DNA from: an uncultured Candidatus Peribacteria bacterium
GTDB lineage: Bacteria > Patescibacteriota > Gracilibacteria > UBA1369 > 2-02-FULL-48-14
Assembly (NCBI GenBank): GCA_964356195.1
Contig: CAYHGP010000006.1
Span: forward strand, 1-41,214
Reading direction: 5' to 3'
DNA length: 41,214 nucleotides
Below, in pieces: positions 18,612-37,229 of this stretch. The notes below the pieces were generated by a model, which saw nothing but the letters and a program-made list of their open reading frames with translations, had not been told where the DNA came from and searched no databases. Made by a program: the position numbers and the translations under genes. Position 1 is the stretch's first letter. Each line of letters opens with the position of its first letter.

Positions 18612-18615
18612 CAGG

Positions 18616-18659
18616 CGAACCCGAAGGGTTTGCTAAGCAATAACGTGGCGTAAGCCACA
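18616..18659 (+). other. Two small hairpins in the gatC-gatA spacer
   Basis: GCGAACCC-GAA-GGGUUUGC (18616-18634, one G-U pair) and GUGGC-GUAA-GCCAC (18646-18659, a GNRA-type loop). Confidence 0.3.
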
Positions 18660-18670
18660 ACATATCTAAA

Positions 18671-20131
18671 ATGGATTTAAACTGGCTCTCTATCGCCGAA
18701 GCGCACCGAGGTCTGCAGGAAAAGAAATTTTCTGCGGAAGATTTGTTGGATGCGTGTTTGGCTCAGGTCAAGAAAGGCGAGTATTTGAATAATTTTGTAA
18801 CCTTGGTGGAAGATCAGGCGCGGGCTCGTGCTAAGGAAGTGGATGCTAAAATTGCGCGCGGCGAGAAAATCGGCGTTTTGGAAGGGATTCCGGCCGGGAT
18901 TAAAGATCTTTTTAACACCCGAGGAGTTCGCACCACGTGTTCTTCTAAAATGTTGGAAAATTTTGTGCCGCCTTACGAGTCCACGGCCACGCGACTTTTG
19001 AAAGAGGCGGGCTACGTGCTGTTTGGAAAAATGAATTTGGACGAGTTCGCGTGTGGAGCGTCTACGGAAAATTCCTATTTTGGTCCGAGTTTGAATCCTT
19101 GGAATAAAGAGTATGTGGCGGGAGGTTCTTCCGGTGGTAGCGCTTCGGCGGTGGCTGCGGGCATGAGCTTTTTCTCCCTTGGAACGGATACCGGAGGTTC
19201 CATTCGTCAGCCCGCTTCGCTGTGCGGTTGCGTGGGGCTCAAGGTGACTTACGGACGTGTGAGTCGTTTTGGGGTGACGGCCATGGCTTCGAGTTGGGAC
19301 ACCGTTGGGCCCTTTGCGCGAACGGTTGAAGATGTTGCGTTGCTGATGAATACCATTGCGGGTCCCGACGTTTATGATTCCACTACGCCGCAAGTTGCCG
19401 TTCCTGATTACACGGCGGACCTTGGCAAAGGGGTGAAAGGACTTCGAATCGGAGTGCCTAAGGAATATTTTGGAGAAGGGGTGGATGAAGAAGTGCGCGA
19501 AATTGTGATGGCGGCGGTAAAAAAATATGAAGAGTTGGGTGCCGTGGTGAAGGAGGTGAGTTTGCCCATGACCAAGTACGGTGTGGCGGTTTACTACGTC
19601 ACTATGCCCACTGAACTTTCCACGAACTTGGCGCGTTTCGACGGCTTGCGTTTCGGTCATCATGCGGAAGGCAGCGAAGACTTGGTCGAATCTTATAAGG
19701 CCAGTCGCGGAGAAGGTTTTGGTGCCGAAATCAAACGCCGCATTATGGTGGGAACTTTTGTGTCTTCCGCCGGTTATGCCGATGCTTACTACAAGCAGGC
19801 TCAGCGTGCCCGAACTTTGATTATTAAGGATTTTACGGCCGCGTTCGAGGAGGTGGATGTTTTGATGGCGCCTGTTTCACCTACGGCCGCATTTAAGGTC
19901 GGCGAGAAAGCCAGCAATCCTTTAGCCATGTACTTGGCAGATGCTTTGGCCATTCCTCCGTCGGCTGCGGGAGTTCCCGCCATTTCTCTTCCTTGCGGAT
20001 TTACTAAGGGCGGTTTGCCGGTTGGTCTTCAGATTATTGGTCCGATGTGGAGCGAGAGTTTGATTTTACAGACTGCGGCGGCGTTTGAGAAGGTGAGTGG
20101 GATCGGGGAGAAGAGGCCGGTTATTGGGTGA
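18671..20131 (+). CDS. gatA: Asp-tRNA(Asn)/Glu-tRNA(Gln) amidotransferase subunit A
   Basis: 486 aa. It has the amidase signature GGSSGGSASAVAAG...GTDTGGSIRQPAS, and a typical GatA N-terminus and length. Confidence 0.95.
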   Translation: MDLNWLSIAEAHRGLQEKKFSAEDLLDACLAQVKKGEYLNNFVTLVEDQARARAKEVDAKIARGEKIGVLEGIPAGIKDLFNTRGVRTTCSSKMLENFVPPYESTATRLLKEAGYVLFGKMNLDEFACGASTENSYFGPSLNPWNKEYVAGGSSGGSASAVAAGMSFFSLGTDTGGSIRQPASLCGCVGLKVTYGRVSRFGVTAMASSWDTVGPFARTVEDVALLMNTIAGPDVYDSTTPQVAVPDYTADLGKGVKGLRIGVPKEYFGEGVDEEVREIVMAAVKKYEELGAVVKEVSLPMTKYGVAVYYVTMPTELSTNLARFDGLRFGHHAEGSEDLVESYKASRGEGFGAEIKRRIMVGTFVSSAGYADAYYKQAQRARTLIIKDFTAAFEEVDVLMAPVSPTAAFKVGEKASNPLAMYLADALAIPPSAAGVPAISLPCGFTKGGLPVGLQIIGPMWSESLILQTAAAFEKVSGIGEKRPVIG

Positions 20132-22417: not shown

Positions 22418-23851
22418 ATGGACACGTTTGCAGCTCTGGAAACCATGACCGCTCAAAATTCTCTTCGTGCTATTCCTCGCGAACATATGTACGCCAAGTA
22501 TCCTCGCACCAATGTCACTAAAAAAATGATTTTGGACATGGCTCAGGAACACGGCGTTCAATTCGTTGATTTCCAATTCACCGATATCAATGGGGTCCTC
22601 AAGGCCATCACGCTGCCTGTTCACAAGCTTGAAGACGCCATCGACAACGACATGTGGTTCGACGGGTCTTCTATTGATGGATTCACGACGATCACCGAGT
22701 CCGACATGATTTTGCGTCCCGACCTCAATACCTTTGCGATTTTGCCTTGGACGCTTGAGGGCGAAGACGTTACCGCTCGACTTATTTGTAACGTGATGCT
22801 CCCGGATGGAACTCCTTTTATGGGAGATCCTCGCAATATTTTAATTCGCCAACTTGAGGAGGCAAAAAAATTGGGACTCACGTTCAATGTGGGACCCGAG
22901 CTTGAATTTTTCCTCTTCCAGGCGGATGAAAATGGAAATCCTACCCTCGTCCCTCACGACAAGGCCGGTTATTTTGATCAGACTACGGACGATGCGCTGC
23001 AAATTCGCCGGCACATGGCTTTTGCCCTCGATATGATGGGCATTGAAGTGGAACGTATGCATCACGAGGTGGCTGCCGGACAGAGTGAAATCAACTTCCG
23101 TTATGGAAACGCTCTCCACATGGCGGACAATGCCGTTTCCTTCAAACTTACGCTGAAAGCTTTGGCAAAAGATTTAGGGCTTCATGCCAGCTTTATGCCC
23201 AAGCCGATGTTTGGAGTGAACGGAAGCGGAATGCACGTACATGAATCGCTGGCTTCAATTGCTGACGGATCCAACAAGTTCTACGATAAAGACGGGACCT
23301 ACTCGCTCTCTGCCATGGCTCAAAGTTTCGTGGCCGGACAGCTTCTGCATATTCGTGCCATGAACGCTGTTTTGAATCCTATTATTAATTCCTACAAACG
23401 TCTCGTGGTGGGTTATGAGGCTCCGGTGAATGCCGCATGGGGACAACGCAATCGCAGCGCGCTCATTCGCGTGCCTCGCATCAGTCCTGCGGTTTTGGAA
23501 AAGGGTTCGCGTGTAGAAATTCGCTGCCCCGATCCTGCTTGTAATCCTTACCTTGCGTTTGCCGTTTTGCTTGCCGCCGGTCTCGATGGAATCAAAAAAG
23601 GTCTCGTGGCTCCTGCTCCTGTGGAACAAAATATTTGGGAGCTCACGCCGAAGGAAATGAAGAAGATGGGAATTAAGACCGTGGCGAGCAACTTGAAAGA
23701 AGCGCTCGACGAACTTGAAAAAGATGAAGTGATTCGTGGCGCGTTGGGAGAAGAAACCTTTCAGAAATTTTATGCCGCTAAAATGGCCGAATGGGAGGCC
23801 TATCGCACTTACGTTTCTCCTTGGGAAACCGACCGTTACTTAGATTGCTAA
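22418..23851 (+). CDS. glnA: Glutamine synthetase, type I
   Basis: Motifs FDGSSIDGF, GPELEFFLF, HHEVAAGQSEINFRY, MPKPMFGVNGSGMHVH and NRSALIRVP are present. The start is uncertain: in-frame ATGs occur 9 and 23 codons downstream and there is no SD at 22418. Confidence 0.9.
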   Translation: MDTFAALETMTAQNSLRAIPREHMYAKYPRTNVTKKMILDMAQEHGVQFVDFQFTDINGVLKAITLPVHKLEDAIDNDMWFDGSSIDGFTTITESDMILRPDLNTFAILPWTLEGEDVTARLICNVMLPDGTPFMGDPRNILIRQLEEAKKLGLTFNVGPELEFFLFQADENGNPTLVPHDKAGYFDQTTDDALQIRRHMAFALDMMGIEVERMHHEVAAGQSEINFRYGNALHMADNAVSFKLTLKALAKDLGLHASFMPKPMFGVNGSGMHVHESLASIADGSNKFYDKDGTYSLSAMAQSFVAGQLLHIRAMNAVLNPIINSYKRLVVGYEAPVNAAWGQRNRSALIRVPRISPAVLEKGSRVEIRCPDPACNPYLAFAVLLAAGLDGIKKGLVAPAPVEQNIWELTPKEMKKMGIKTVASNLKEALDELEKDEVIRGALGEETFQKFYAAKMAEWEAYRTYVSPWETDRYLDC

Positions 23852-24811
23852 GAGGACACGTTCCAGGGCCAAATAATACGGGTCTTCTTCCCTTGGTTTC
23901 AGGGGGAGGAGGCCCGTTTTGAGTCGTCGGTCGATATCAAGGAATTTCTCCAAAGCCGTTTTCATTTCACCGGCCGTGAAGTTTTTCGCAAAGCGCAAAG
24001 TGTTTTGAACTACAAAAGGGTGAACGCCCATTTTTTTTGCGATCATTGTGGGAGGCAAATTTTCCTCGGCCAGCGCGCGCATTTCGAGCATGAGGCGGAA
24101 CTGACGCACAATCATTGAGAAAATATATGGAGCTTCTTCGCCTTGGTCTTGAAGTTGGCGAATTGTTTTGAGTACGCCCGGGAAGTCTTTGCGGGCGAGC
24201 TGGTCCGTCATCGTGAAAATGGATTTCTGAACGTTGTGAGTCACGACTTCATCAATCATTTCCGCCGTGATGTTTTTGCCTTGCGCGAAGAGGCTGAGTT
24301 TTTGGATTTCGCTTTCCAGGTTGAAGAGATCATCTCCGAGAAGGCTGGTCAAATAGCTGGCGGCATCGGTGGACATGAGGGCGCCTTGGCCTTGGGTGCG
24401 GCGTTGAATCCACGTGTTGAGCAAGGCTCCTTTGGGTTTGAGGAAGAGGCGATTGGTCGCTAGGGAAGACAATTTTTTAAAAATGCTGGTGCGTTTGTCC
24501 GGGTCTTTTAATTCCGTCATCACCAGGATGGTGGTTTCCGAAAGTTTTTCGAGAGCGGGGAGCAGCAAGTTGGCTTCTTCCGCCTTTCGTCCGCTGAGGA
24601 AATTTTTAAGGATAACGAGCCGTTTTTCAGAGAGAAATGGGGCCGTGGATATTGAACCAATAATTTGTTCAATATCACAGCTTTCTCCATCCAGTTCTTC
24701 CAAATCGGTATCGCCGTGTTTTTCCACAAAAGCTTCTTTCCAACGTTTCACCTCTTGGAGAAGGGAAAAGCTGTCTTCACCGGACATGAGGAAGAGATTG
24801 GGCTTGTTCAT
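23840..24811 (-). CDS. holA: DNA polymerase III subunit delta
   Basis: 323 aa. The pattern is LFLMSGEDSFSLLQEVKRWKEAF...PFLSEKRLVILKN...LLGDDLFNLESEIQKLSLF. Its 3' end overlaps the glnA 3' end by 12 nt. Confidence 0.8.
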   Translation of the reverse strand: MNKPNLFLMSGEDSFSLLQEVKRWKEAFVEKHGDTDLEELDGESCDIEQIIGSISTAPFLSEKRLVILKNFLSGRKAEEANLLLPALEKLSETTILVMTELKDPDKRTSIFKKLSSLATNRLFLKPKGALLNTWIQRRTQGQGALMSTDAASYLTSLLGDDLFNLESEIQKLSLFAQGKNITAEMIDEVVTHNVQKSIFTMTDQLARKDFPGVLKTIRQLQDQGEEAPYIFSMIVRQFRLMLEMRALAEENLPPTMIAKKMGVHPFVVQNTLRFAKNFTAGEMKTALEKFLDIDRRLKTGLLPLKPREEDPYYLALERVLLAI

Positions 24812-24815
24812 GCCC

Positions 24816-27800
24816 TTAGTTTATCGCTTTCTCTGTGGAAACGTCCACATATTCGGAGAGAGACGGGGGTGTGTTCAAGAGGATGCGGCTGTCGTAACGA
24901 ATCACGAGACCTCCTCCTTCAAGGGTTGGAGGGGCCACGAAGCGGGCGGCATCCATCAAGTGTTGGATGTTTCCATAGAGGGAACCGTCCACCGTGAGGA
25001 CTCCGTCCACGGGGCTGCGCCAATCGCCATTCGTATCGGTGTCCTTGGAATTTCCATAGAAGTTCTGGTCGGTGTAATAGACTCCCACGTTATGGTACGA
25101 AGTGTTTTTAAAGTAAATGTCTCCTCCCTGAACCACGAAGGCGACGGAAGGAAGATTTTTGTAATCGCTCAGGTCAGTCGAAGTCGCATAGCTGATGTCG
25201 CCGGCGATTACGAGGTCGGCATTTTCAACAATAATGGTCCAGGCTCCTGCAGGCACTTCCAAGCTTCCGAGGGTCAATTTTCCTGCGGACGTGGTGCAAG
25301 TGCTGACTCCGAGACATCCGTTGAAGTAAAGAATATTGCTGTCCGGATTGTTGGAGTTGGAGAGAGCGCCGGCTAAACTGCTCCAGTTGTCGGAGGCGGT
25401 GCTGCCGTTTCCGGAAGTGCTGTCGACGTTGCTGGATTGCAGTGTCACCGTGTTACGCGTGGCTTGGCTCACATGGCTTTCCGTCGTGGTTTCCACTGTT
25501 GTTTTTCTCCACAGGTCGGTTACGGTGTTCACAATTTCACAGACGTAGGAACTTAGGTTTCCAATGAGGCCGGTCGAGGAAGAATCACTGTCACAGAGAG
25601 AGATTGTGGTTCCTGTCGGGTCGCTCAAATAGGTGCTTGAGCTGGTTGTTTCTTCACTGCTGCCTTCCAGAATTATAAGCGCATCGGTGTTGGCATAATT
25701 GCTGGTGGCCTCGTCTTCATCGACGAAGATACAAGAGATGTCGGAGCCGCCTTCAAGGGCGACTTCCAAGTACACATCTCCAGCGTTTTCGGTGAGCAAG
25801 TAGGAACACAGCACTACGAGTCGAGCGCTGGCAGTGAGTGAATCAATTCCGTCGTAGACTTGGAGTTCAGCATCATTTTGGAATTCTTCGGTGAGACATT
25901 CGTCGGCCCCGTCGGAACATTCCAGACCGGAGTTGATGATTCCCACGTAACGGATGCGGATGACGGCTATGTCGACTACCGTGCCGGCGTTTTCAATCAC
26001 GACCTTGTTGTAAGGGGAAGGATTTTCGGGGGAATAATCGGGGTCGTAACAAACTTCGGTGGAAGTGAGGTCGCCGGAAAGGGGATCGTATTCGCAGACA
26101 TCAATGAGGGTGGATTCCGATGTGTTGTCGTCGTAGGCAAGGTAAGGAATGAAGGTTTTGTAGAAGTAGGTGTCGAAACTTTCCACGTAAGGAACAATGT
26201 ACTCTTCGTTGTGAAGTTCATGACAGGTTGCTTCATTGGTGATGTCGGGACAGCCGAAACCCATGTTCACGAGCGTGGAGTAACGGCTGTAGGCCGTGGC
26301 GCTGGTGAGTTCGCTGTAATTGGTGGCCAATTCCACGTCTCCTCCGGAGCTGGTGCCGTCTCCATTTTTTCCTTCCAAAGTTCCGTCCCACATACTGTCG
26401 GTGAAGGTGATGTCCTCTTCGCCGCCGGCGGGGTCGTATTGCAAGGTGTAGAATGCGCGGTCTTCATCGTGGGCGAAGAACACGTTTTCATCGGAGTGGG
26501 AATTCTTTTCGAGTGAGAAGTTGAAGGTGAAGATGAATTTGCTGAAGGTTCCGAGTTCTTGAATTTCAACAGGGAGGGTGTCGGAACAGGATTTCCCTTC
26601 ACCTTGCGTATCGACGCTGATTTCGGCGTCTTCACAAATGTCTTCGAAGATAATATCCACGCAATCTCCGTTGCCGACATCTTCAATGGTCACATCGCCG
26701 GTGGCGGTATCGTAGGTTCCGTTGTTATCGTCATCGTAGAGAATGGTTCCGGCGGTGTCTCCACAGTAGTAACTCACATCGAGGTCTTCGCTGGAGTCTT
26801 CGGTATCCACACAAATTTCGGTGCTTTCGTCGGCGCCTTCTACGGTGTCGATGGAGTCTTCGCCGAAGCTTACGTCAAGACAGACATTGCTTCCGCCGCC
26901 TCCTCCTCCGCTGGTGTCGTCGTCGTCATCATCGCCCGAACTGTCATCGTCGCCTGGCGTGACGGTTGTTGTTCCTTGGGTGATGCTGAAGGCGTCGGTA
27001 CAAATGAGAGCTTCGCCCTCAATATAAGAGGTCACGGTGTCGCCGGCCACGCCACCCACGTAGGTCGCGGTGACGGTGGTGCTGGTGCCGCTCACGGCAA
27101 CTTCCAAGTGGCCGTCGCTTTCGGTTGAGGCGCTTCCGGAGCTGTAATAAAGATCGCCGGAACCTGTGTTTGCAATAATGAGATTTCCGGACCAAGCGGC
27201 GTCGCTTGCCGTTACCATGGTGCTGATAGCGATGGTTCCCGCGGTGGCGTCCGAAGCGGACATGACGTAAGAGTCAGGACTCATTTCCACGTCAATACAG
27301 TAGTTTCCACCTGAAGTTCCTTCTTGAGTGATAGTGAAGACGTCGTTACAAAGAGTGTCTTCATCTTCAATGTAAGACGTCACAATGTCTCCGGCAACTC
27401 CGCCGACGTAGGTCACGGTCACCGTTGTAGCGGTGCCGGAAACCGGGATTTCCAAGTGTCCGTCTCCATAGGCTGAAGCGCTGCCATCCGTGTAGTAGAG
27501 GTCTCCTGAACCCGTATATTCCACAATCAAATTTCCCGTCCAGAGGGCGTCGCTGCCGGTCACGTCAATGGTGACGGTGATTGTTCCTGCGTCGGCATCC
27601 GTGGCGGACATGGTGTACGAGTCCGGATCCATTTCGAGGTCCACACAAACGTAGGATTCTTCTTCTTCGAGGGGAGGAAGTTCTTCATCAGCGAAACAGG
27701 CGGCTTCTTCGGTGAGTATGCCAAGAGTGATATAATTCCCTTCCTCGTAGTTTTCAAAACATAGGGTTCCTGTGTAGCTTGTGTAACCGGTAATGCTGAC

Positions 27801-29873
27801 GTCGGCCGTGTTGGTATTGCTGTCGCTATCCACCAAGGTTGTTCCTGTGGAGTCGTAGGCATCGAGAGTGAGAGTGGTTCCCGTGTAGGCGGTAGCCGTG
27901 TTATCGGTATAGCCGGCCGCTTCTAAAGTTCCCAGGTAAGTGGTGTCGGAAACATTGAGGGTGTAATCCCAACATACTACATTGGTGCCGTAGAGAGTGG
28001 CGAGGTCCGCTGCATCCGTAAGATCGATGGGGACTTCGGTTCCGGTGGAATCAATAATGTAAGGAGTGCCGAGAGTGAGGTCTTCACATACGGGAGCGAT
28101 TTCTTCGGGAGTTTCGCTAGGAATGACATCTCTACAAGTGGGGTCGGTGGGGTAGAGGTTGCTGGTGACGGTGATGTCGGCTCCCGGAGTTCCTCCTGTG
28201 ATTTCAACGGAGTAACCCATCACCAAAGTATGAGTACCGGTCATAGTGACTCCTGTTGCCGGGTCGTAAATACTTCCTACACCGTCACTGGTGCTTACGG
28301 TGAAAGGAGGAGTGAGGATTCCGGTTGTTGTGTTTCCCGTCCAAGTCACGGTCACGGTTCCCGCCATGTCGTCTGCGGTGATGACAAGAGGAGATACAAT
28401 ATGGAGTTCAATACAGTCGTTTTCTGTGATGGTGTAATCAAAGCTGTCGTTACAAAGATTGGCCACATCGTCACTGACGCCGTCTCCGTTTTCGTCGTCG
28501 AGGCCCACGCTTACGGTGTTAGAGCCCACTTCCTCGCTGTAGTAAGCTACCGTCCAATCGGTGGTGGTGTAAGGAGTGGTAGTGCCATCAAACGTCGCAT
28601 TCAAATCCGTGGATTCGTAGGTCACGCTGTATGGCCAATCGGTTCCTTCGTCGAAATCAGCATCCGCATCAATTCTGATATTGGCTTCATAAGGGCCTTC
28701 CGCAGGCAAGCTGATTCCGGGGCTGGTGATGTCGAGGTCGGTACAGTAAGGAAATTCGAGTTCCACTTCACACACGCCGCTTCCACAGTAGTCGACGCCG
28801 TTGTAGTCGGACACACAAACGGTGATGGCGTCGCCGGGTAAGGAATTGTTGTAACGCACGGTACTGTCTCCGCCTTCCAGGTCATTGCCCTGTCTTTTGA
28901 AAGATCCACTTGCATCGGGTGAGGCTCGAGAGCTGTCGTATTCATAGGCTTGGTAGTGGAAGGTGGAATCACCGGTGATATCGCTTCCATCGGTTCCCGT
29001 GGCGGTGACTTCGAGGTCGGTGTCATTGAAAACGTCGGCTACGGAAAGAGAGCTGGGGGTGATGGCGAGGGAGTCACAAGCCACTTCTTCACATTCGTAG
29101 TTGGTGACTAGGGTCGTGGTGTGATTGTTCCAATGGTATCCTGTTTCGCCATCTTCTTCCACTTCTTGCCAACAATCGGAATCACTCCAGTCACCACAGG
29201 ATTGATCGTAAGCATAAAAGCTTACATAAAGGGCTGAGTCGGTGGTAGCGCTATCTCCAGTCACTACATCCTCATCAAAATCAAAATCTAGTGTTTCATA
29301 AAACCAACGGTACTCTTGATCGCTCGTATCTACATCGCCATCTGCATCGTAATCATTGTATCCGGGAATAAAAGGTCGATCTCCTCGATCTGTAATTCCG
29401 TACTCCCACTGAATGTAGTCCGGGTATACCGCATCACTACTCGTGTCTCCTCTCACTATAGTGACTTCGAGTCCTCCGTCGTCGGTTGCGGTTCCACCGT
29501 CACAGGAAACATAACCCGATGGAGTGCTACACTCCATGGTGGATAAATCTATTGAATCAACAAAATCATCGTGAAGATAGAAACGCAGGTACTTAACATA
29601 CATGTAGTATTCATACCCCTCCGTATAACCTGAGGTATTAGTATATCCATGCTGGTGCCAAGCATCGGTATCCGGACAGTAGACGGTCTGTTCATAGTCT
29701 GAATCTGCGGAGGTGCCGCTCAATTCACCCTCAATAGTGCTTGAAGTTGGACCGGAGAAATGTCCCCCGCCAAAGGTCGCGGCTGAGGAAAGTTGCACGC
29801 CAATCAGCAAGCCAAAAATGAGACTGGAAATCCCAAAAGTGGTTCTATTTGATTTTGTAAACAGGTTTAACAT
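24816..29873 (-). CDS. Giant secreted acidic, Cys-rich modular protein (1685 aa), unknown function; adhesin or surface-protein-like
   Basis: It has a Sec signal peptide (FGISSLIFGLLIGVQLSSA|AT). It is extremely D/E/T/S/G-rich and has many Cys. At least seven modules open with C-x-[DES]-[LV]-x-[IMLF]. I saw no TM segment, LPxTG motif or lipobox at the C-terminus. Confidence 0.85.
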   Translation of the reverse strand: MLNLFTKSNRTTFGISSLIFGLLIGVQLSSAATFGGGHFSGPTSSTIEGELSGTSADSDYEQTVYCPDTDAWHQHGYTNTSGYTEGYEYYMYVKYLRFYLHDDFVDSIDLSTMECSTPSGYVSCDGGTATDDGGLEVTIVRGDTSSDAVYPDYIQWEYGITDRGDRPFIPGYNDYDADGDVDTSDQEYRWFYETLDFDFDEDVVTGDSATTDSALYVSFYAYDQSCGDWSDSDCWQEVEEDGETGYHWNNHTTTLVTNYECEEVACDSLAITPSSLSVADVFNDTDLEVTATGTDGSDITGDSTFHYQAYEYDSSRASPDASGSFKRQGNDLEGGDSTVRYNNSLPGDAITVCVSDYNGVDYCGSGVCEVELEFPYCTDLDITSPGISLPAEGPYEANIRIDADADFDEGTDWPYSVTYESTDLNATFDGTTTPYTTTDWTVAYYSEEVGSNTVSVGLDDENGDGVSDDVANLCNDSFDYTITENDCIELHIVSPLVITADDMAGTVTVTWTGNTTTGILTPPFTVSTSDGVGSIYDPATGVTMTGTHTLVMGYSVEITGGTPGADITVTSNLYPTDPTCRDVIPSETPEEIAPVCEDLTLGTPYIIDSTGTEVPIDLTDAADLATLYGTNVVCWDYTLNVSDTTYLGTLEAAGYTDNTATAYTGTTLTLDAYDSTGTTLVDSDSNTNTADVSITGYTSYTGTLCFENYEEGNYITLGILTEEAACFADEELPPLEEEESYVCVDLEMDPDSYTMSATDADAGTITVTIDVTGSDALWTGNLIVEYTGSGDLYYTDGSASAYGDGHLEIPVSGTATTVTVTYVGGVAGDIVTSYIEDEDTLCNDVFTITQEGTSGGNYCIDVEMSPDSYVMSASDATAGTIAISTMVTASDAAWSGNLIIANTGSGDLYYSSGSASTESDGHLEVAVSGTSTTVTATYVGGVAGDTVTSYIEGEALICTDAFSITQGTTTVTPGDDDSSGDDDDDDTSGGGGGGSNVCLDVSFGEDSIDTVEGADESTEICVDTEDSSEDLDVSYYCGDTAGTILYDDDNNGTYDTATGDVTIEDVGNGDCVDIIFEDICEDAEISVDTQGEGKSCSDTLPVEIQELGTFSKFIFTFNFSLEKNSHSDENVFFAHDEDRAFYTLQYDPAGGEEDITFTDSMWDGTLEGKNGDGTSSGGDVELATNYSELTSATAYSRYSTLVNMGFGCPDITNEATCHELHNEEYIVPYVESFDTYFYKTFIPYLAYDDNTSESTLIDVCEYDPLSGDLTSTEVCYDPDYSPENPSPYNKVVIENAGTVVDIAVIRIRYVGIINSGLECSDGADECLTEEFQNDAELQVYDGIDSLTASARLVVLCSYLLTENAGDVYLEVALEGGSDISCIFVDEDEATSNYANTDALIILEGSSEETTSSSTYLSDPTGTTISLCDSDSSSTGLIGNLSSYVCEIVNTVTDLWRKTTVETTTESHVSQATRNTVTLQSSNVDSTSGNGSTASDNWSSLAGALSNSNNPDSNILYFNGCLGVSTCTTSAGKLTLGSLEVPAGAWTIIVENADLVIAGDISYATSTDLSDYKNLPSVAFVVQGGDIYFKNTSYHNVGVYYTDQNFYGNSKDTDTNGDWRSPVDGVLTVDGSLYGNIQHLMDAARFVAPPTLEGGGLVIRYDSRILLNTPPSLSEYVDVSTEKAIN
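26976..27647 (-). repeat. Tandem duplication of a 108-aa module (2 x 324 nt separated by a 24-nt linker) inside the secreted giant protein
   Basis: CVDLEMDPDSYTMSATDADAGTITVTIDVTGSDALWTGNLIVEYTGSGDLYYTDGSASAYGDGHLEIPVSGTATTVTVTYVGGVAGDIVTSYIEDEDTLCNDVFTITQ is paired with CIDVEMSPDSYVMSASDATAGTIAISTMVTASDAAWSGNLIIANTGSGDLYYSSGSASTESDGHLEVAVSGTSTTVTATYVGGVAGDTVTSYIEGEALICTDAFSITQ. By eye the two copies are a bit under two-thirds identical. Confidence 0.9.
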
Positions 29874-29874
29874 G

Positions 29875-30027
29875 TTATTCAGCTAGAAAAGTAGGTGCTT
29901 CTTCAGGAGTTGTAATTTCGGATGAACCTTGCTCAGGTGCCTGAGAATTTTCGGGTCTTTTCTCTGTTTGGCCGCAGGCACTTAAGAAGAGAGAACTTAA
30001 GAGGATGATTTTAAATATTTTCTTCAT
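29875..30027 (-). CDS. Small lipoprotein (50 aa), missing from the supplied ORF track
   Basis: My translation is MKKIFKIILLSSLFLSACGQTEKRPENSQAPEQGSSEITTPEEAPTFLAE*. It has a perfect lipobox (LSAC). The ATG is 14 nt after the upstream giant gene's stop, and its TAA is 1 nt before the downstream giant gene's ATG. Confidence 0.6.
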   Translation of the reverse strand: MKKIFKIILLSSLFLSACGQTEKRPENSQAPEQGSSEITTPEEAPTFLAE

Positions 30028-30041
30028 ATTGTTAATTAACT

Positions 30042-33000
30042 TTATTCATCTTGTAAATCAGCAGCTCCTGATTCTCCACCTGTGCCGTCTTGTAAGGGAT
30101 GCACCTCGGGGCGTCCAGAACCCAGTTCAGGTCTAGGCCCTGTACCTTGGTCGCTAGGATCAGGTTCCTTTTCACCTACCAATTCAGGCGTCGTTTCCTC
30201 GGAATAAGCCACTGCAACTCCGGCACCAATAACATGGGTACCTTTGCGGGCGCTGAGGTAGTCGCGGACTTCGGCTTGGGCGGCTTGGTTTCCGCCCCCT
30301 GTGACTTTCACTTCCACATTGAGAGGTTCGTTCATAGTGACCGTGAAGTTCACACATTTTTCGTAGAGACCCACGGTTTTCACTTGCTTGGTGGTCAGGA
30401 TGACTCGCGCGTCCTCGTAGCGTTGAGTGTCGCGGAGTTGTTTTACGATATCGGCGTATTTTTTGTAAATGGCTCTTGATCCTTCTGGAATTTTGTCGTA
30501 AGTGGAGAGGAAGCTTCCAGTTGGTGTTTTCGTTTGTGCAAGTTGGAAAAGCTGTACCAGTTGAGCTCCTTCTGCTGGAGAGAAAATAATGTCGGCGGCG
30601 TCCAATACTTCGAGTCCGATTTGGCTGTGCATGAGCTTGTCGGGGTTGCTCTCCGCTATTTTGTCGCTGCCTTCATAGCCGAGGGGGGAAAGTACTCCTG
30701 TGGCCACTTCTATGAATGCTGCGATTTCTGGGCCGGTGAGGGTGGGGAAGGCCGCGCGCAAAGCCTCTGGTGTAATATTGGTAGCGTCCAGCATTCGGCC
30801 CTTCCCTTCGGGATCCCAGAAGTTTTCTCGGTATCCTTCAATTCCTTCGGTACCCACCATGATGTGAACGATGCTCCCTGCGGTGATTTCAGAGGCTGTG
30901 TAGTCTCCTCCTTCTCCACCAATGGGAGCTACGCTGTGTTTGCTTGCGGGATCGAAGAACTGTTTAACCATTTTTTCGGCGACGGAAGCGGCCATCCCTT
31001 CAGGGTACTCCGGAGGCTTCATTCCTCCTTCAATGAGGTATTTAGTGGTTTGTTTCGTGTTCCACTCAATGTTGTGTTCTCGAGCGGCTTCAAAGGGACC
31101 CGGTTCTCGGCTGTAAAGTTCACCGGCGGCTTCAACCGTGCAAGCTTGAAGCATATAGGTCATTTTGGTGTTGTCCCACCATTCTATTGGTTTGCCGGGA
31201 GGTACCGCCATGGCTGCAGCTTGTTCAGTTATATCTTTCACGAGTGCGCCATAGTCGGCTGGGGTGCCGTCTTCATTGACGCCCAAAGAAAGATTTTTGT
31301 ATTTACGTCTTCGAGTGAAATCAGCCTGTTGTTTTTCGTCGAGATCGGCATAGGGTCTGTTTTGTCTTACGCCATCTTTTACGAAAGTTGTTGCAGGATC
31401 CCAAGCGAGCAAGGTGCTTGCCATCGCTTCAATTTCACCACGAGTGGTTTCATCGAGTGCAGGCCCCGTGTGTTCTTGGTCGAGGAGTCCACGCATTTGT
31501 AGTCGGATGGCCTCACGGTTGGCTTGGTCATCGATGATTTCGGTCAGCGCGTTTCCTTCAGCAATTCCTCCCTCCGTTCCCATGGCTTCTTTGCTCGCAT
31601 AGATGCTCGATTCTCCGCCTTCTCGATCGGCGACAATTTCAGCTTGGGTTCGCGTGCCCCCCATGGCTTCGGTGTAGTGGAGGTGAGACGAACTTTCTCC
31701 TTCCATGACCCTGCTTTCAACGTGAGGATTGTTGGTGATGTAGAGTTTGACGCGGTGGGTTTGGCCGAAACTTTCGAAAGGGAAGTATTCGTCCACACGG
31801 CGAATGAAGAGTTTGTCAGATTTATCGAGGTTCAAGTAGATGGAGCCTTCGGGACCGATGTAACTTTGAATACCTGACTTGGGATCCACGTAAAGGTCTA
31901 CGCTGCCGTCCACTTTGAAGACGTCCAGTTTGATTTCTCCGTCGCGAGTCCCTTCCAGGTGCAGGCCTTGTTCTTCCACTCCGTGTAAGCGTGCATCCAT
32001 TTCTGCTTGGCTTGCGGCACCTCGGATGGATAAATCTTGAGATTGGGTGATGGTGGTGGAGCCATTCTTGGCTTCACGTTGTAAAAGTCCCGATTCGTAA
32101 ACGTGAACGGCTTGTATTTCTCCCGGAGCCACCGCTGCTTGTGTGGCCAGGGCTCTTTGGATGCGTACTGCCGCCACGTAGTCGAGGTTTACGGCTTCTT
32201 TGGGTCGGCTGTAGGCCAAGAATTTTTTACCTCTCCATCCCATCTTTATATAAGGAATAGGGAATGCCATCCCTGGGATGTAGGCGAGACCGAGACCCAA
32301 GAACTGGACGTGCTTTAAATCTTCAATGGCTTGATCTCCAAATTGTTGATGAAGACCCACGAGCATATTTTGCTGGAATGCTTTGAACTCCTCTGCCGTC
32401 ATGGTTCCTGGAACGAGCAGGGATTCATAGGTTCGGAGGGCGTCCGCTACCGTTTCCTTTTGTTTTTCGCCAATTTTAGCGGCCTTTCTCTCGACAACCT
32501 GCTTCATGTTGCGATCAATCCCTACCGTGAGTACGAAGGCGGTTGCCATGGAAGAGGCATCAAGGCCAGCTCCGGCTCCTACGCTGATTTTCCATACGCG
32601 GTGAGGGCCCATTTCATATCCCAGGTTCACGCCCGCTCCTATTCCTAGCCCTGCATTAGGTCCCGTTCCTGTATTATCAAGTCCCACTTGAGCTCCGGCG
32701 TGAAAACCGACGTCAAATTGTCCGAATTTGCTTTGGCCAAACTCTTTGTGGCCGGCAAGTCCGGCGTGAAACTCGAATTGATGGGTGATGGTGTTGTTTT
32801 TGAAACCCACGTGCATGACCAGAGACCCATCGTCCGTGAGAGGGATTGGCACGTTGGCATCGAAGGCGCCACCAATATCAGGTTTTCCTCCGTCAATGCT
32901 GTTCATAATGATTCCTGCCGTTCCTAAATTGAACTCATGGAGATTGTCGCTCGCTTGTTTGAGTTCGGCGGGGGACAGGTCCATTCCCATTTCTTGAATC

Positions 33001-35252
33001 GTTTCTAACTGTCCTCTTGTCATGGCGTCTTGTGGGTGCTCGCTGATGTATTCTTTTTGCTCCGCTTCTTCCAGGGTATATTCTTCACCCAAGTCTACGG
33101 CTGTACCCAAACGGACGAGTTGCTTTTGGGTGTCGTCGGCGAGGACGGTTTGCATGGTGTCCCAGGTCATGGGCGTTTTATATTTTTCTTTGGTGGTGTA
33201 GAGCCCTTTGTAAACGTTGTCGATTTCTTCTTGAGTGATGCCGCCTTTCTTTTCAAGTTTTTCTAATTTTCTCATGAACTGTTTTTTCTCACGGGCAGTC
33301 ATTTCATAGTTGTCGCTGGCGAATTTCTTACCTTTTGCGAGGGTAATAACGTCATTGTCCGCTAATTTTTGTACGGCTGCGTCGAGGTGTGCTTTCCCTT
33401 CCGGAGTCATGACATAGACTTCTTTGGAAAGCACTTCATCGGCGGAGGCATCCACCACTCCTTTTGCACGGAGGAGGTTCAAATTGTCCACGAATTTTTG
33501 TTTACCTGTTTCCGTGAGCTCGAGTGCTCCCGTTTTAGGGTTGTGGGTGAGGGCGGATTGAATGAGGTACTGCCACGCCGCTTTGTCGGAAATGTACTGC
33601 TCCATGCGGTCGGCGGTTTGTACGTTTCTAGGGATGAGGATCCTTTCTTTTCCACCTTTTGGGAAAGGATTCCATTCTGTTCTATAGAGTTGTGCTTTCC
33701 CTTCATAAAGTTGCATATTTACCGCTTCTCCTTTTAGGAGAGGGCCCGCGTTAGTTTTATCGAAAAGACGGTTTGCAACCGCTTCTAGGCTTTGAATGTC
33801 TGTCGTCTCTTCAAGTTTTTCACTCTCTTCCGTTGAGGTTTTTTCGTCACGAACGTCGAGTTTTTCAATGGAATTTATAAAAACCCAGGCTGCGCCGTAG
33901 AATTTCTCAATATTGGCGAGTTCCTTTTGCATATCCTCTTTTCGCTCAGGAGTGAGCTGCTTTTTGTACCTGTGGCCTTTCCCTCGGGTTACATAATAGT
34001 AACCATCGCTTACTATTTTACTTAGGTCTTCTTCTCTTTTTACGAGTTCATTGGGACCTCGGTGGAAAACGGCTTGAGTTACTTCTTGGTAGGTGACTTT
34101 ATTAGGATCACCTAAGAAAGTTTCCCGGCGGATTTCTTCCCACATTGCTGTTTCTGAACTTTTCCCGGCAATAGTGCTGAGCGTTTTTAAGGAGCCCAAA
34201 ATTTGGCTACCAAAGTCGAGGTCGTAGAATTTTTCGGCGTAATCATGGTCGGTCCACTCCTTCATGACGTCGGGAACCATTTTAAATACTCCTCGTGTTA
34301 GGCCTGCGCGTCCTTCGTCGATGTGTTGGGCTTGGAGTGCGTCCTCTCCCTCTATAAAGGTGGCGAGACGCGCGTCAGCCGCCTTTTGTTCCGCAGATTT
34401 TTCGGGGGTGGCTGGGGCGGCTGTAAAGGCTTCTCTTGGAGCGGGTGGCACTCCTCGTGCCTCTTCTTCATCCCAAGTTTCACGTAAGCCAGCCGTTCCT
34501 TTCGGACGTCCACTTTCATGCTCTGTAGGGAAAGGTCGCCCGGTAACAGTACTGATGCCGGCTTCGGCAACCAGAGGTGCTGTTTCAGGTTGAGGTACCG
34601 GCGTTGGTGCTGGTGTTTCACCTGCTTCATGAGACAAAACAGTGAGTTCGTAGTTGTCTTTCACAACTACATAGGCGCCGTTCGAGTCTACAAATTTTCC
34701 CGCGTATTTTCCGTCTTTTGCGCGGACGGCTTCTATAGGTTTGCTTGCACCGGGTATTTTAACACTGACTTTGGTCACCTTTTCGGGAACGAGGTTGGTG
34801 ATTCCAAATTTTAGATAGGCTTGGTCTCCAAAACTTTGTGACCAGCCTTTGTGAAAATCCACAAGGTACTTGCTTCCGTTCCCAAATTCATCATTGGCTT
34901 CATCCGGTTGAACGCGTTCTGTATTTCCTGTCGTTCTTCGGAGGAAGATCGGTGCAAAGTTCTCCGCTAACCCATCGTTGAGAGCCTTGAGGTCCTCGGC
35001 ACTCTTCAGTAAAACGTCCATTTTCGCTTTGTCGTGTTCGTCGAAATCGCCGTCTTTCGCCAGTTCTTCTCCTTTGGCGATGAGCTGCTTGGATTGTTCG
35101 CTGGAAATTTTCCCGGACAATTCTGAGCGTTGAACGTCTCTACTGTCCCAGCTTGCGATTTCTGCTACCGGTTCAGGCGTGCTTTCCAAAAAAACAAGCC
35201 TGTTTTGGAGGAATGGAGCTTCGAATCCACGATTTCTACAAGAGATTGCCAT
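30042..35252 (-). CDS. Giant orphan protein (1736 aa) with no signal peptide and no recognisable domain
   Basis: The ORF is uninterrupted over 5.2 kb with protein-like composition. It has only three Cys, a Pro-rich linker (ETPAPTPVPQPETAP), a central Gly-rich amphipathic segment and a disordered acidic/Gly/Pro tail. I recognised no Walker, HExxH, YD or RHS motifs. Confidence 0.85.
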   Translation of the reverse strand: MAISCRNRGFEAPFLQNRLVFLESTPEPVAEIASWDSRDVQRSELSGKISSEQSKQLIAKGEELAKDGDFDEHDKAKMDVLLKSAEDLKALNDGLAENFAPIFLRRTTGNTERVQPDEANDEFGNGSKYLVDFHKGWSQSFGDQAYLKFGITNLVPEKVTKVSVKIPGASKPIEAVRAKDGKYAGKFVDSNGAYVVVKDNYELTVLSHEAGETPAPTPVPQPETAPLVAEAGISTVTGRPFPTEHESGRPKGTAGLRETWDEEEARGVPPAPREAFTAAPATPEKSAEQKAADARLATFIEGEDALQAQHIDEGRAGLTRGVFKMVPDVMKEWTDHDYAEKFYDLDFGSQILGSLKTLSTIAGKSSETAMWEEIRRETFLGDPNKVTYQEVTQAVFHRGPNELVKREEDLSKIVSDGYYYVTRGKGHRYKKQLTPERKEDMQKELANIEKFYGAAWVFINSIEKLDVRDEKTSTEESEKLEETTDIQSLEAVANRLFDKTNAGPLLKGEAVNMQLYEGKAQLYRTEWNPFPKGGKERILIPRNVQTADRMEQYISDKAAWQYLIQSALTHNPKTGALELTETGKQKFVDNLNLLRAKGVVDASADEVLSKEVYVMTPEGKAHLDAAVQKLADNDVITLAKGKKFASDNYEMTAREKKQFMRKLEKLEKKGGITQEEIDNVYKGLYTTKEKYKTPMTWDTMQTVLADDTQKQLVRLGTAVDLGEEYTLEEAEQKEYISEHPQDAMTRGQLETIQEMGMDLSPAELKQASDNLHEFNLGTAGIIMNSIDGGKPDIGGAFDANVPIPLTDDGSLVMHVGFKNNTITHQFEFHAGLAGHKEFGQSKFGQFDVGFHAGAQVGLDNTGTGPNAGLGIGAGVNLGYEMGPHRVWKISVGAGAGLDASSMATAFVLTVGIDRNMKQVVERKAAKIGEKQKETVADALRTYESLLVPGTMTAEEFKAFQQNMLVGLHQQFGDQAIEDLKHVQFLGLGLAYIPGMAFPIPYIKMGWRGKKFLAYSRPKEAVNLDYVAAVRIQRALATQAAVAPGEIQAVHVYESGLLQREAKNGSTTITQSQDLSIRGAASQAEMDARLHGVEEQGLHLEGTRDGEIKLDVFKVDGSVDLYVDPKSGIQSYIGPEGSIYLNLDKSDKLFIRRVDEYFPFESFGQTHRVKLYITNNPHVESRVMEGESSSHLHYTEAMGGTRTQAEIVADREGGESSIYASKEAMGTEGGIAEGNALTEIIDDQANREAIRLQMRGLLDQEHTGPALDETTRGEIEAMASTLLAWDPATTFVKDGVRQNRPYADLDEKQQADFTRRRKYKNLSLGVNEDGTPADYGALVKDITEQAAAMAVPPGKPIEWWDNTKMTYMLQACTVEAAGELYSREPGPFEAAREHNIEWNTKQTTKYLIEGGMKPPEYPEGMAASVAEKMVKQFFDPASKHSVAPIGGEGGDYTASEITAGSIVHIMVGTEGIEGYRENFWDPEGKGRMLDATNITPEALRAAFPTLTGPEIAAFIEVATGVLSPLGYEGSDKIAESNPDKLMHSQIGLEVLDAADIIFSPAEGAQLVQLFQLAQTKTPTGSFLSTYDKIPEGSRAIYKKYADIVKQLRDTQRYEDARVILTTKQVKTVGLYEKCVNFTVTMNEPLNVEVKVTGGGNQAAQAEVRDYLSARKGTHVIGAGVAVAYSEETTPELVGEKEPDPSDQGTGPRPELGSGRPEVHPLQDGTGGESGAADLQDE

Positions 35253-35318
35253 ACGTTTTGTTTTGATTTGAATCTATACATGATATCATAAAAGCACTTT
35301 TCTCGCAATAGCCTCGCC

Positions 35319-35987
35319 ATGGCGTTTCAGACACCCATTCTCATCACCAATTTCAAGTGCTACCAAGAGTCCACGGGGGCTCGGGCGGTGGAGCTTGCCA
35401 AGCTTCATGAGCGTGTGGCGAACGAACTGGGTGTGAATGTGGCGGTTGTTGGAATGACTTTGGATCTTTCGATGCTCGCCATGAGTGTGAGTATTCCTGT
35501 TTTGGCTCAGCACTTGGATGGCATCGGTTGGGGCGCTTATACCGGTTTGATTCCGGTGGAAGTGGCGCGCAGCAGTGGAATTGACGGAGCGATGTTGAAT
35601 CACTCGGAGCGACGAATTTCGGACGCGGATATTGGCCGTGCTTTGGAACGGATGAAGGCCTTGAATATGCTGTCCTTGGTGTGTGCTGAAAATTTGGAAG
35701 AGGGGCGTAGGTTCGCAGAAATGGGTGCGGATTTTATAGCGATCGAAGTGCCGGAACTGATCGGTGGGAATGTTTCTGTTTCCACGGCGCATCCCGAGCT
35801 GATTTCGGAAGCGGTGGCTAAGATCGGCGCCGGGAAAGTGATTGTGGGGGCCGGCATTAAAACCGCCGAAGATGTGCGCGTTGCCATAAAGCTCGGGGCT
35901 GTTGGAGTTTTGGTTTCCAGCGGTATTGTGAAAGCAGCCGATCCTTTGGCGGCGATTCGTGAACTGTGCGGGGCGTTGAAACCTTAA
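35319..35987 (+). CDS. tpiA: Triosephosphate isomerase, archaeal (short, about 222 aa) type
   Basis: ILITNFKCYQESTG...PVLAQHLD...GAMLNHSERR...FIAIEVPELIGG...VGAGIKTAEDVRVAIKLGAVGVLVSSGIVKA aligns along its full length with my recollection of Pyrococcus TIM (IAINFKTY...LLNHSENR...VEPPELIGTG...CGAGISTGEDV...GVLLASGV). Confidence 0.85.
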   Translation: MAFQTPILITNFKCYQESTGARAVELAKLHERVANELGVNVAVVGMTLDLSMLAMSVSIPVLAQHLDGIGWGAYTGLIPVEVARSSGIDGAMLNHSERRISDADIGRALERMKALNMLSLVCAENLEEGRRFAEMGADFIAIEVPELIGGNVSVSTAHPELISEAVAKIGAGKVIVGAGIKTAEDVRVAIKLGAVGVLVSSGIVKAADPLAAIRELCGALKP

Positions 35988-35999
35988 TTTTTTGGACTT

Positions 36000-37229
36000 A
36001 TGGCAAAATTGGCCGGGGGACTTTTCCCTCGAATTGTTGCGCTGTTTCCTCTGATGTTTCCGCTCTACCTTTTCCGCGGAACTTTTTTTGGAGTGCCTGT
36101 GACTTTGCCGGAAGTGGGTCTCGGTGTTTTGTTCGTTTGGTTTTTGCTGCAACTTTGGCAGGATGGAGAGCTGCGACGAATTGGTGGACGAATTGACTGG
36201 AAGCTCGCCCCCATTTTTTTGTTTTTGGCCGCGGCCGTAGTGGGCGTTTTGGTGGCTCCGGACACGGCTACCATGATGGATGGAACGGAGTTTCCCGCGC
36301 AGGCGAAAGCCTTTGGGATTTTGAAGGGCTGGATACTGGCGCCCCTTTTATATTTCGTGATGGCGCGTAGCGTTTTCCGCGAAAAACCCGCGCTCATTCC
36401 TCTGGCTTTGCGCGCCCTCTTGGTTTCCGGCGTTGTACTTTCCTTAATGGCGCTGCAACAGGTTTGGACCGGGGAATTTTCGACCCTGGACGGACGCGCT
36501 TCGGGGCCGTTTGAGTCGGCGAATTATTTGTCTTTGTACTTGGGGCCTTTGGTGCTTTACGCAGGCTTGGCGTTTTGGCGGGCTGAAGGAAAAGCCGAGC
36601 GGATTTTTTTGGGAGTGAGTGGCGTGGTGGTTTTGCTGGGTTTGTATTTTAGTGAATCGTACGCGGCATGGATTGCGGTTTTGGCTGCGCTCACTTTGGC
36701 AGGTTTATTGTTTGCCAGGAAGAAGGGGAGGAAGGCGTTCTGGCTGGCTTTTGGCGGGCTTTTTGTGCTTGGCTTGGGGCTGGTTTTATCTCAACTTGGC
36801 AGTGAAAAATTCACGCAGTTTTTCGAATTTTCAGAGCGCTCCTCGTCGAGTGTTCGCATCCAAGTGTATGAAATCAGTTTTGCATTGCTCAAAGAACATC
36901 CTTTACTGGGAATCGGTCTTGGGCAATTTGAACAGCAATATCAGGAAGTGGCGGTTTCTACTTTGGTGGGAGCACCTTTTGAGTGGAATATGCTGCATCC
37001 TCATAACATCTTTCTGGCGTTTTGGCTGAACATGGGTTTGGCGGGTTTGGTGGCTTTTGTTTGGCTCTGCGGTCGAGCTTTTTTGTGGCTCACCGAGGAG
37101 GATAAAAAAGAGCGCCACCTCGCGGCCCTTATGCTCGTGGTCATCGTGATTCACGGATTTTTCGATACGCCCTACTTCAAAAACGACCTCGCTTTTCAGT
37201 TTTGGTTACTCATGGCGATGCTGATTTAA
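36000..37229 (+). CDS. O-antigen ligase-like (Wzy_C domain) polytopic membrane protein
   Basis: 409 aa with about ten TM segments. A loop followed by LLKEHPLLGIGLGQFEQQY...HPHNIFLAFWLNMGLAGLV is typical of the O-antigen ligase/polymerase family. Confidence 0.7.
   Translation: MAKLAGGLFPRIVALFPLMFPLYLFRGTFFGVPVTLPEVGLGVLFVWFLLQLWQDGELRRIGGRIDWKLAPIFLFLAAAVVGVLVAPDTATMMDGTEFPAQAKAFGILKGWILAPLLYFVMARSVFREKPALIPLALRALLVSGVVLSLMALQQVWTGEFSTLDGRASGPFESANYLSLYLGPLVLYAGLAFWRAEGKAERIFLGVSGVVVLLGLYFSESYAAWIAVLAALTLAGLLFARKKGRKAFWLAFGGLFVLGLGLVLSQLGSEKFTQFFEFSERSSSSVRIQVYEISFALLKEHPLLGIGLGQFEQQYQEVAVSTLVGAPFEWNMLHPHNIFLAFWLNMGLAGLVAFVWLCGRAFLWLTEEDKKERHLAALMLVVIVIHGFFDTPYFKNDLAFQFWLLMAMLI

Follow-up and report, generated by a model that had tools for sequence, protein, structure and literature searches.

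Three adjacent genes on the minus strand of a 41,214-nt contig from an uncultured Candidatus Peribacteria bacterium (GenBank assembly GCA_964356195.1, contig CAYHGP010000006.1, positions 1 to 41,214; this whole stretch is called the window below) encode a 1736-aa protein, a 50-aa lipoprotein and a 1685-aa protein, which we name A, lip and B. Judging from their sequences, we regard it as about an even call that they form a surface or host-contact module peculiar to their lineage, with exchangeable parts that determine specificity. This surface or partner-contact reading is the best supported of those weighed here because lip and B carry export signals, the order and packing of the genes are conserved, B is adhesin-like, and the locus has evolved quickly and as a mosaic. 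We further infer that the three products act jointly.

Arrangement and conservation of the locus

Four consecutive minus-strand open reading frames (ORFs), encoding A, lip, B and holA in that order, are separated by gaps of 14, 1 and 4 nt, and both the ORF coordinates and these gaps are exactly as given in an earlier note that a model had made from the sequence of the window. The ORFs are intact with the standard genetic code, and A, lip and B are packed for translational coupling. Homologues of B were found at 20 loci in a collection of species-representative genomes (19 distinct loci after one duplicate was removed), all of them in Candidate Phyla Radiation (CPR) genomes labelled Candidatus Peribacteria, Peregrinibacteria or 'Gracilibacteria', one of which is a complete 1.3-Mb chromosome; the record titles and this chromosome support the earlier suggestion of a reduced-genome bacterium. 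All loci examined (L001-L025; about 19 species-level genomes) share the order wzy, tpiA / A, lip, B ... holA / glnA, in keeping with the proposal in the earlier note that these are not three unrelated genes.

Every B locus with enough upstream DNA has, directly upstream, a 1400-1800-aa protein that is a diverged, collinear homologue of A (BLASTP E 1e-5 to 1e-91 and 15-30% identity in the syntenic loci), and between the two lies a 44-64-aa ORF with a lipobox in 18 of the 19 distinct loci, such that the giant-lipoprotein-giant synteny for which the note had suggested looking in relatives is indeed conserved. Several relatives' lip ORFs had been masked by over-extended ORF calls for B. The idea that B is itself the lipoprotein at loci seeming to lack lip was rejected, as a lip ORF was found there, overlapping the over-extended calls. 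The module is single-copy, syntenic, located at a fixed site in the core genome and universal in its subclade, and since 'Ca. Peribacter riflensis' has a different holA neighbourhood, it belongs to a subclade of the class.

The description of A as an orphan did not survive these comparisons. A word-indexed homologue search returned A itself alone and a profile search added one protein, whereas an exhaustive HMMER search with A residues 690-1736 against 1.84 billion representatives recovered 44 clusters, which are 1300-1800 aa long except for a few shorter ones (two fragments of about 300 aa and two of about 1100 aa) and include none with a different architecture. Both the synteny route and exhaustive HMMER were needed to reveal this collinear, lineage-restricted family; from the word-indexed search alone, A would have been mistaken for an orphan. 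Pfam, NCBIfam, PHROGs and PADLOC held no family match for A or B, with Pfam giving none for any member of the family alignments, and PDB sequence searches (single and profile) returned nothing significant, the best match being to syntaxin-like helices at E = 0.05. The earlier remark that neither giant contains a recognisable domain holds at the sequence level, to which structure prediction adds immunoglobulin-like (Ig-like) arrays in B and an outer-membrane-protein-like (OMP-like) barrel in A.

Predicted architecture of protein B

B contains 40 Cys (2.4%) and is otherwise composed of 17.9% D+E, 2.2% K+R and 32% T+S+G, for a net charge of -265. Its leader combines K7 and R10 with hydrophobic residues 13-28 (Kyte-Doolittle > 1.6), and comparable leaders are present in full-length homologues, all of which agrees with the Sec signal peptide, the dozens of Cys and the acidic, Thr/Ser/Gly-rich composition read from the sequence before. 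Across 15 homologues, which share 43-57% identity, Cys makes up 1.8-2.7% of the family's residues and 27 of the 40 Cys in B are conserved in at least 80% of members. The variable Cys are gained or lost in pairs (226/234, 353/363, 859/958, 1208/1217 and 1520/1526), as expected for disulfides.

These Cys sit within a protein that can be divided into a head, a stalk and a C-terminal region. In the head, DYDADGDVDTSD (174-185) fits the TSP3 calcium-binding motif, for which the chance expectation is 0.015. Seven modules open with C-x-[DE]-[LVI]-x-hydrophobic, and the modules at 743-858 and 859-975 are homologous (about 63% identity; z = 49 by Smith-Waterman with shuffles), while BLAST self-comparison of B gave no off-diagonal matches; the earlier note's repeated Cys-initiated modules are thus real as seven module starts, but homology is demonstrable for that single pair alone. 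The C-terminal 580 aa or so are the most conserved part of the protein, with a mean pairwise identity of 52% among 12 syntenic loci, and the terminus ...RYDSRILLNTPPxLSEYVDVxTEKxxN is strongly conserved, several of its positions being invariant. Neither an LPXTG sorting motif nor a transmembrane anchor was found at the C-terminus (...SEYVDVSTEKAIN).

An AlphaFold2 (AF2) model of B, covering residues 1000-1685, is of modest confidence (mean predicted local distance difference test score, pLDDT, 61.5) and shows runs of beta-sandwiches. Its Foldseek neighbours were integrin-alpha leg domains, PrgB Ig-like domains, the CfaB pilin and Srr2, at E 5e-7 to 1e-4 but with TM-scores of 0.1-0.27. For stalk residues 261-1000, the module pattern is all from which an Ig-like fold is read. 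Repeats of this module type also occur in P0017, which carries SLH and bacterial TSP3 domains, and this shared module, together with the AF2 and Foldseek results, makes B look like a secreted adhesin, as would suit the exported surface protein envisaged earlier. We describe B as a secreted, disulfide-stapled, fibrillar adhesin-like protein that probably binds calcium and has a conserved base and a variable head.

It is possible, though somewhat unlikely, that the module is instead an envelope structural element (an S-layer-like coat, a wall-spanning scaffold or a fibrous surface) with lip-tethered B as the coat, its variation driven by phages or predators and with no role in host contact. The extremely acidic, Thr/Ser-rich composition of B and the repeat module that it has in common with an SLH-domain protein would suit a coat, as would the universal presence of the module at a fixed core-genome site, which is expected of a housekeeping envelope component, and fibrous surfaces made of giant proteins have been described in related CPR bacteria (PMC8080830). 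In one relative (L002), moreover, an 881-aa SLH-domain protein is encoded directly downstream of holA (16958-19603), and from such sequences these genomes may anchor some of their surface proteins via SLH domains. B, though, has no SLH, LysM, LPXTG or other wall-anchor motif, nor does any of its 15 family members have a Pfam match, and its 40 Cys contrast with the low Cys content usual for S-layer proteins. Discrete, swappable head cassettes (see below) also resemble specificity determinants more than lattice subunits, although phage pressure could give the same pattern.

The small lipoprotein

The lip gene encodes a leader with the n-region MKKIFK, the hydrophobic stretch IILLSSLF and the lipobox L-S-A-C18, the last of these matching the perfect lipobox recorded in the earlier note. 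With its charged n-region, h-region and lipobox, lip has the sequence features of a bacterial lipoprotein (an Lgt/LspA substrate) and is predicted to be lipidated; neither lgt nor lspA lies within the 41,214-nt window. NCBIfam matches to lip are confined to lipoprotein signal regions. Mature lip has 33 residues, is acidic and polar, and is probably disordered; in relatives the mature part is 27-44 aa long and likewise polar and acidic, its sequence not being conserved.

Mosaic evolution and exchangeable cassettes

Rates of evolution were taken from a close pair of genomes (L020 and L022), in which TpiA is 97% identical and dS is about 0.4-0.6 for all genes. Between these two, dN/dS reached 0.36 for A and 0.30 for B, 6 to 9 times that of the neighbours, with values of 0.056 for holA, 0.038 for tpiA and 0.088 for wzy. 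The locus DNA of the pair is 90-96% identical save for three sharply bounded blocks, namely A codons 1 to about 290 (52-74% DNA identity; dN 0.79), a short block at A residues about 1190-1290 (61% identity), and the lip gene along with the first 330 or so codons of B (55-71% identity). The N-terminus of A and the head of B have been replaced, that is, and the intervening 4 kb is about 90% or more identical (except A 1190-1290). Within A, constraint in this pair is strongest in the barrel region described below (omega about 0.05).

Comparison across 12 genomes revealed two deep classes of A, one comprising L002, L007, L010 and L014 and the other the rest, which cut across a species group with TpiA 82-92% identical such that A is 17-29% identical between such species. 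The B head (34-260) falls into the same two classes, and its distances correlate with those of the middle and C-terminal parts of A (rho 0.68 and 0.74) and not with those of tpiA, holA, the B stalk or the B base (rho about 0), whereas the stalk and base of B follow the species tree (rho 0.72-0.87). Read from these alignments, the locus carries exchangeable cassettes within conserved flanks, a pattern known from antigenic or receptor-specificity loci, and both giants show the fast, mosaic evolution that is typical of exposed interaction proteins and that would suit the surface or interaction role first suggested for them.

Sharply bounded, recombining cassettes in large proteins, one of them enclosing a small and fast-changing lip, could also belong to a polymorphic toxin, contact-dependent competition or defence locus whose variable blocks are effector and immunity modules, and giant proteins without Sec signals are common in such systems. 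We consider this very improbable. PADLOC, Pfam and PHROGs revealed no toxin, immunity or defence domain in A, lip or B, the small gene is a lipoprotein without a conserved fold, and the variable parts are N-terminal whereas polymorphic toxins vary C-terminally. The locus, furthermore, is universal, single-copy and syntenic and not patchy in the way of defence islands.

Protein A and its predicted beta-barrel

A contains three Cys, has a pI of about 5 and is 11% K+R. No 19-aa window of it has a mean Kyte-Doolittle hydropathy above 1.6, from which it follows that there is neither a transmembrane segment nor a signal peptide; hydropathy scan and Cys count alike agree with what had been noted of A before. 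Most of the 15 syntenic homologues, and many of the 44 representatives too, carry an N-terminal motif (Table 1), and a disordered Gly/Pro/acidic C-terminal tail is general in the family. The possibility that the N-terminus is a prepilin leader was rejected, there being no hydrophobic helix after the Gly. The coordinates of the N-terminal block in the window were mapped from relatives by alignment.

The AF2 model of A residues 690-1736, built from a 35-sequence alignment, has a mean pLDDT of 77.9 and a predicted template modelling score (pTM) of 0.53. It runs through helices at 697-770, eight long meander strands at 777-914, a charged helical hairpin at 916-977 and two strands at 982-1015, followed by mixed alpha/beta and helical domains and a C-terminal beta-sheet. 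The 10 strands of the barrel region, 8-17 residues long in the AF2 secondary structure, are connected on the termini side by turns of 2-5 residues, and they present one aliphatic/aromatic and one Gly-rich/polar face in a dyad pattern that is kept in the family at <30% identity.

Foldseek comparison of this region with the PDB gave nothing significant, and the best neighbours were almost all outer-membrane barrels (RagA, OpcA, BtuB, OprD, intimin/invasin beta-domains, FhaC, OmpX and a designed 10-strand transmembrane barrel at TMt 0.48). The best neighbours from the viral library BFVD were 'porin domain' or OMP-barrel proteins of phages (TMt 0.40-0.50, E = 0.027-0.5). Sequence comparisons of the barrel alone pointed the same way below threshold, with Pfam matches to PF13505 in 3 of 17 members (lowest E, 0.0066), to PF10895 (E = 1.7e-4) and to PF12099 (E = 0.037), and with OpcA at E = 0.37 in a PDB profile search; no OMP family of the Pfam MBB clan was matched by A above its curated threshold. 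Because these weak signals agree in direction but none passes a curated threshold, the OMP-like barrel at A residues 777-1015 is a moderately supported prediction of the structural model.

Alternatively, A might be a cytoplasmic protein, either a scaffold or something unrelated, that shares an operon with a lipoprotein-adhesin pair and whose 'barrel' is a soluble beta-domain packed against the rest of A. No family member has a signal peptide or transmembrane helix, A is rich in Lys/Arg and poor in Cys, unlike the exported B, and outside the barrel it is mostly helical; the pTM of 0.53 leaves the packing of its domains undefined, and the Foldseek E-values are non-significant. All the same, we think a cytoplasmic A unlikely. 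A dN/dS of 0.36, with 17-29% identity between species whose TpiA is 82-92% identical, would be unusual for a cytoplasmic structural protein, and the N-terminus of A has been replaced as a block in parallel with the head of the secreted B. The strand faces and very short termini-side turns fit membrane barrels, and OMP families recur among the weak sequence matches.

Apart from the barrel, the segment G-L-Y-E-x-C-x-N-F-T at A residues 1628-1637 (30342-30371, minus strand) contains Cys1633 and Asn1635, and these two residues, like Gln1369 and Trp1397-Asn1398, do not vary among the 15 syntenic homologues. Taken together with the conserved Cys5, the segment and these residues hint at a catalytic or cross-linking site.

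A proposed mechanism and the points against it

If the surface or partner-contact reading is right, B would be exported by Sec and would fold into a calcium-binding string of Ig-like beta-sandwich modules stapled by disulfides, with the conserved 580 aa at its C-terminus forming the cell-proximal or assembly end and its variable N-terminal head the distal, ligand-binding end. Anchored by its lipid to the outer face of the cytoplasmic membrane, the 33-aa acidic lip would serve as a tether or adaptor. A would leave the cytoplasm by a non-Sec route and its amphipathic barrel would sit in a lipid layer, which could be the membrane of a partner or host or an unrecognised outer layer of the cell itself, with the large soluble domains of A, including its variable N-terminal 300 aa, on the cis side. 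The N-terminus of A and the head of B would then jointly set attachment specificity, and recombination would swap the two under diversifying selection from hosts or phages.

Carried to its end, this mechanism would make A a new kind of non-Sec giant with a barrel inserted in the host outer membrane or in an unrecognised outer layer of its own cell, with lip-tethered B and the A N-terminus giving exchangeable host specificity and the whole forming a bridge or conduit between a CPR episymbiont and its host; in this full form we judge the proposal quite unlikely.

A number of observations weigh against the surface or partner-contact reading. The trio has no match at curated thresholds to characterised adhesin, secretion or porin families, and no host of Peribacteria is known to us. 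Neither A nor any of its 44 family representatives has a signal peptide, and the composition of A (K+R 11%, few Cys) looks cytoplasmic and differs from that of B. For the barrel, every Foldseek E is at least 0.027 and so non-significant, the strands were read from the secondary structure of the model, and in a crude scan of beta-hydrophobic moment (amphipathicity) the region did not stand out. Since CPR bacteria count as monoderm, the barrel of A has no obvious home membrane, and no export route has been identified for A. The title of PMC12102498 also presents CPR bacteria as monoderm. Finally, the co-segregation of the A cassette with the B head could have arisen from linkage alone, both being contiguous on the DNA, although in L020/L022 the A N-terminus and the B head have been replaced and most of the 4 kb separating them has not.

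holA, the B-holA slot and other features of the window

The identification of holA by the earlier note is confirmed by a full-length match to TIGR01128 (250 bits against a cut-off of 80; E = 3.5e-74) and by PF06144 and PF21694, both above their cut-offs. The note had also supposed that co-transcription would tie expression of the module to this gene. In most relatives, the slot between B and holA is filled by unrelated genes of 180-300 aa on either strand, so that the 4-nt junction specific to this genome is a local accident and not conserved coupling; a functional coupling of holA with the module was accordingly rejected.

This slot, which is empty in the window, holds at least 4 unrelated gene families on either strand in different species (for example, L001 14887-15744, L007 13030-13878, L016 12105-12995 and L020 12137-12685) and appears to be an insertion hotspot. 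One slot family has a counterpart elsewhere in the window, where a 220-aa ORF without a Pfam match (635-1297, minus strand) is 45-50% identical to the slot gene of L002/L009 and of L006 (L002 14954-15781; L006 13088-13960). This ORF family seems, from its sequences, to move between sites in these genomes. On its other side, holA (minus strand) overlaps the convergent glnA (plus strand, 22418-23851) by 12 nt at their 3' ends (23840-23851), leaving no room for a terminator between them.

Transcription signals were scanned for by consensus. No minus-strand terminator-like site was found at the A/lip/B/holA junctions, which is compatible with the earlier statement that there is no internal terminator, but the scan as a whole performed at chance level. 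Likewise at chance level overall, the promoter scan picked out a candidate site on the minus strand at 35308-35280 (TTGCGA, 17 nt, TG-n-TATCAT) in the divergent A-tpiA spacer. The best promoter-like match in the region (30008-30035, minus strand; TTAACA, 16 nt, TAAAAT; 10/12 positions) spans the A-lip junction and would begin transcription within the lip ORF. A search for DNA tandem repeats found none.

Core genes in the window are those for L25, H+-PPase, RelA/SpoT, RecO, FtsX, GatA, GlnA, holA, TpiA, a Wzy-type ligase, a Mur ligase, TruB and Alr. Positions 14000-18300 have a low GC content (0.415-0.438 vs about 0.47-0.53 elsewhere) and contain two ORFs of about 490 aa without a family match (13413-14876, minus strand; 15332-16801, plus strand) and a gene for a BRO-N domain protein (17446-18270); this stretch may be a phage-derived or horizontally acquired island. 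A 288-aa ORF with a TTG start (35286-36152, minus strand), antisense to tpiA and without a family match, is almost certainly spurious.

Table 1. Coordinates of the module, its predicted parts and adjoining features in the window.
Feature	Position	Strand	Description
protein A	30042..35252	-	1736 aa; collinear family restricted to Peribacteria
A N-terminal motif	35211..35252	-	M-A-[ILV]-x-C-x-N-x-G-F-x-x-P-F, here MAISCRNRGFEAPF
A N-terminal part	34353..35252	-	about 300 aa; homologous block hypervariable and recombining in relatives
predicted OMP-like barrel	32208..32924	-	A residues 777-1015; AF2, pLDDT about 70-90 here
A C-terminal tail	30045..30197	-	residues 1686-1736; disordered, Gly/Pro/acidic; pLDDT about 30
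lip, lipoprotein precursor	29875..30027	-	50 aa; lipobox LSAC18
protein B	24816..29873	-	1685 aa; predicted Sec-exported, adhesin-like architecture
B signal peptide	29781..29873	-	residues 1-31; predicted cleavage SSA/A after residue 31
B head	29094..29774	-	residues 34-260; contains TSP3-like calcium-binding motif DYDADGDVDTSD (174-185)
B stalk	26574..29093	-	residues 261-1100; Cys-bracketed beta modules
B C-terminal region	24819..26573	-	residues 1101-1685; beta-sandwich rich (predicted), low-confidence middle
holA (DNA polymerase III delta subunit)	23840..24811	-	323 aa; syntenic neighbour, outside module
intergenic A-tpiA	35253..35318	.	66 nt, divergent; holds candidate promoter

Relation to known systems and significance

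Large exported Cys-rich proteins that vary between strains and for which a role in attachment was proposed have been described in Peribacteria (PMC4736985; Anantharaman et al. 2016). B is like these proteins of 'Ca. Peribacter riflensis' in class of organism, large size (theirs average about 1650 aa), signal peptide, many Cys, lack of functional annotation and strain-level variation. It differs in having 2.4% Cys where the published 14-gene cluster has 7.2 +/- 2.4%, and neither a signal-peptide-free partner nor an intervening lipoprotein nor allele cassettes are described in PMC4736985. We take B to be, in general kind, a lower-Cys relative of those proteins, the Cys content of its whole family (1.8-2.7%) lying well below that of the published cluster. 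Giant surface proteins are also reported in Vampirococcus (PMC8080830), and in the literature we found no description of the trio, the A family, its predicted barrel or the allele cassettes.

Inverse autotransporters (intimin/invasin, type Ve) and two-partner secretion systems likewise combine a membrane barrel with an Ig-like array ending in a variable binding tip, and the A barrel has weak structural neighbours in FhaC and in the beta-domains of intimin and invasin (4e1s, E = 0.32; 4e1t, E = 0.64). Unlike in inverse autotransporters, the barrel and the Ig-like array are here on separate proteins and there is no Pfam match (PF11924); A lacks a signal peptide, carries extra domains amounting to about 1500 aa and is predicted to have about 10 strands instead of 12 or 16. 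The Peribacteria lineage is regarded as monoderm and as lacking BAM, unlike the hosts of inverse autotransporters. Gram-positive Ig-fold adhesins and pilins (PrgB and Srr2, with CfaB as a fold neighbour) resemble B in being secreted with a tandem beta-sandwich stalk, and they supply the best Foldseek matches to its model. B, by contrast, lacks an LPXTG sortase signal, and neither Big nor Cna-B nor SdrD domains were recognised in it; its modules are stapled by Cys pairs, and the TM-scores are low (0.1-0.27).

By analogy alone, the attachment organelle of Mycoplasma (the P1 operon and HMW proteins) also pairs giant adhesins with giant partners that have no signal peptide, in a host-contact structure of wall-less, reduced-genome cells. 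Peribacteria, by contrast, have peptidoglycan, and HMW proteins are coiled-coil and cytoskeletal with no beta-barrel. In RcsF-OmpA/C/F and LptD-LptE, a beta-barrel is paired, in its encoding or its action, with a short lipoprotein that has a disordered linker, and by likeness to RcsF and LptE, lip could thread through, plug or tether the barrel of A; those, however, are diderm outer-membrane systems with Sec-exported barrels. In function, inverse autotransporters and lipoprotein-barrel pairs such as RcsF-OmpA are the closest analogues, though none of the defining features of those families that could be checked was clearly established here.

To our knowledge, little is understood of the means by which CPR/Patescibacteria recognise other cells, attach to them and draw on their resources, and for Peribacteria, which have no cultured member and no known host, nothing is understood. 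The locus offers a concrete candidate for such contact in Peribacteria, in the form of a secreted Ig-like adhesin and a partner without a signal peptide that has a predicted porin-like barrel. If the barrel is real and inserted in a membrane, two possibilities arise: an outer lipid layer around these 'monoderm' cells, or a barrel planted by them in the membrane of their partner. The allele cassettes, moreover, are practical markers, and their correlation with co-occurring taxa in metagenomes could predict hosts.

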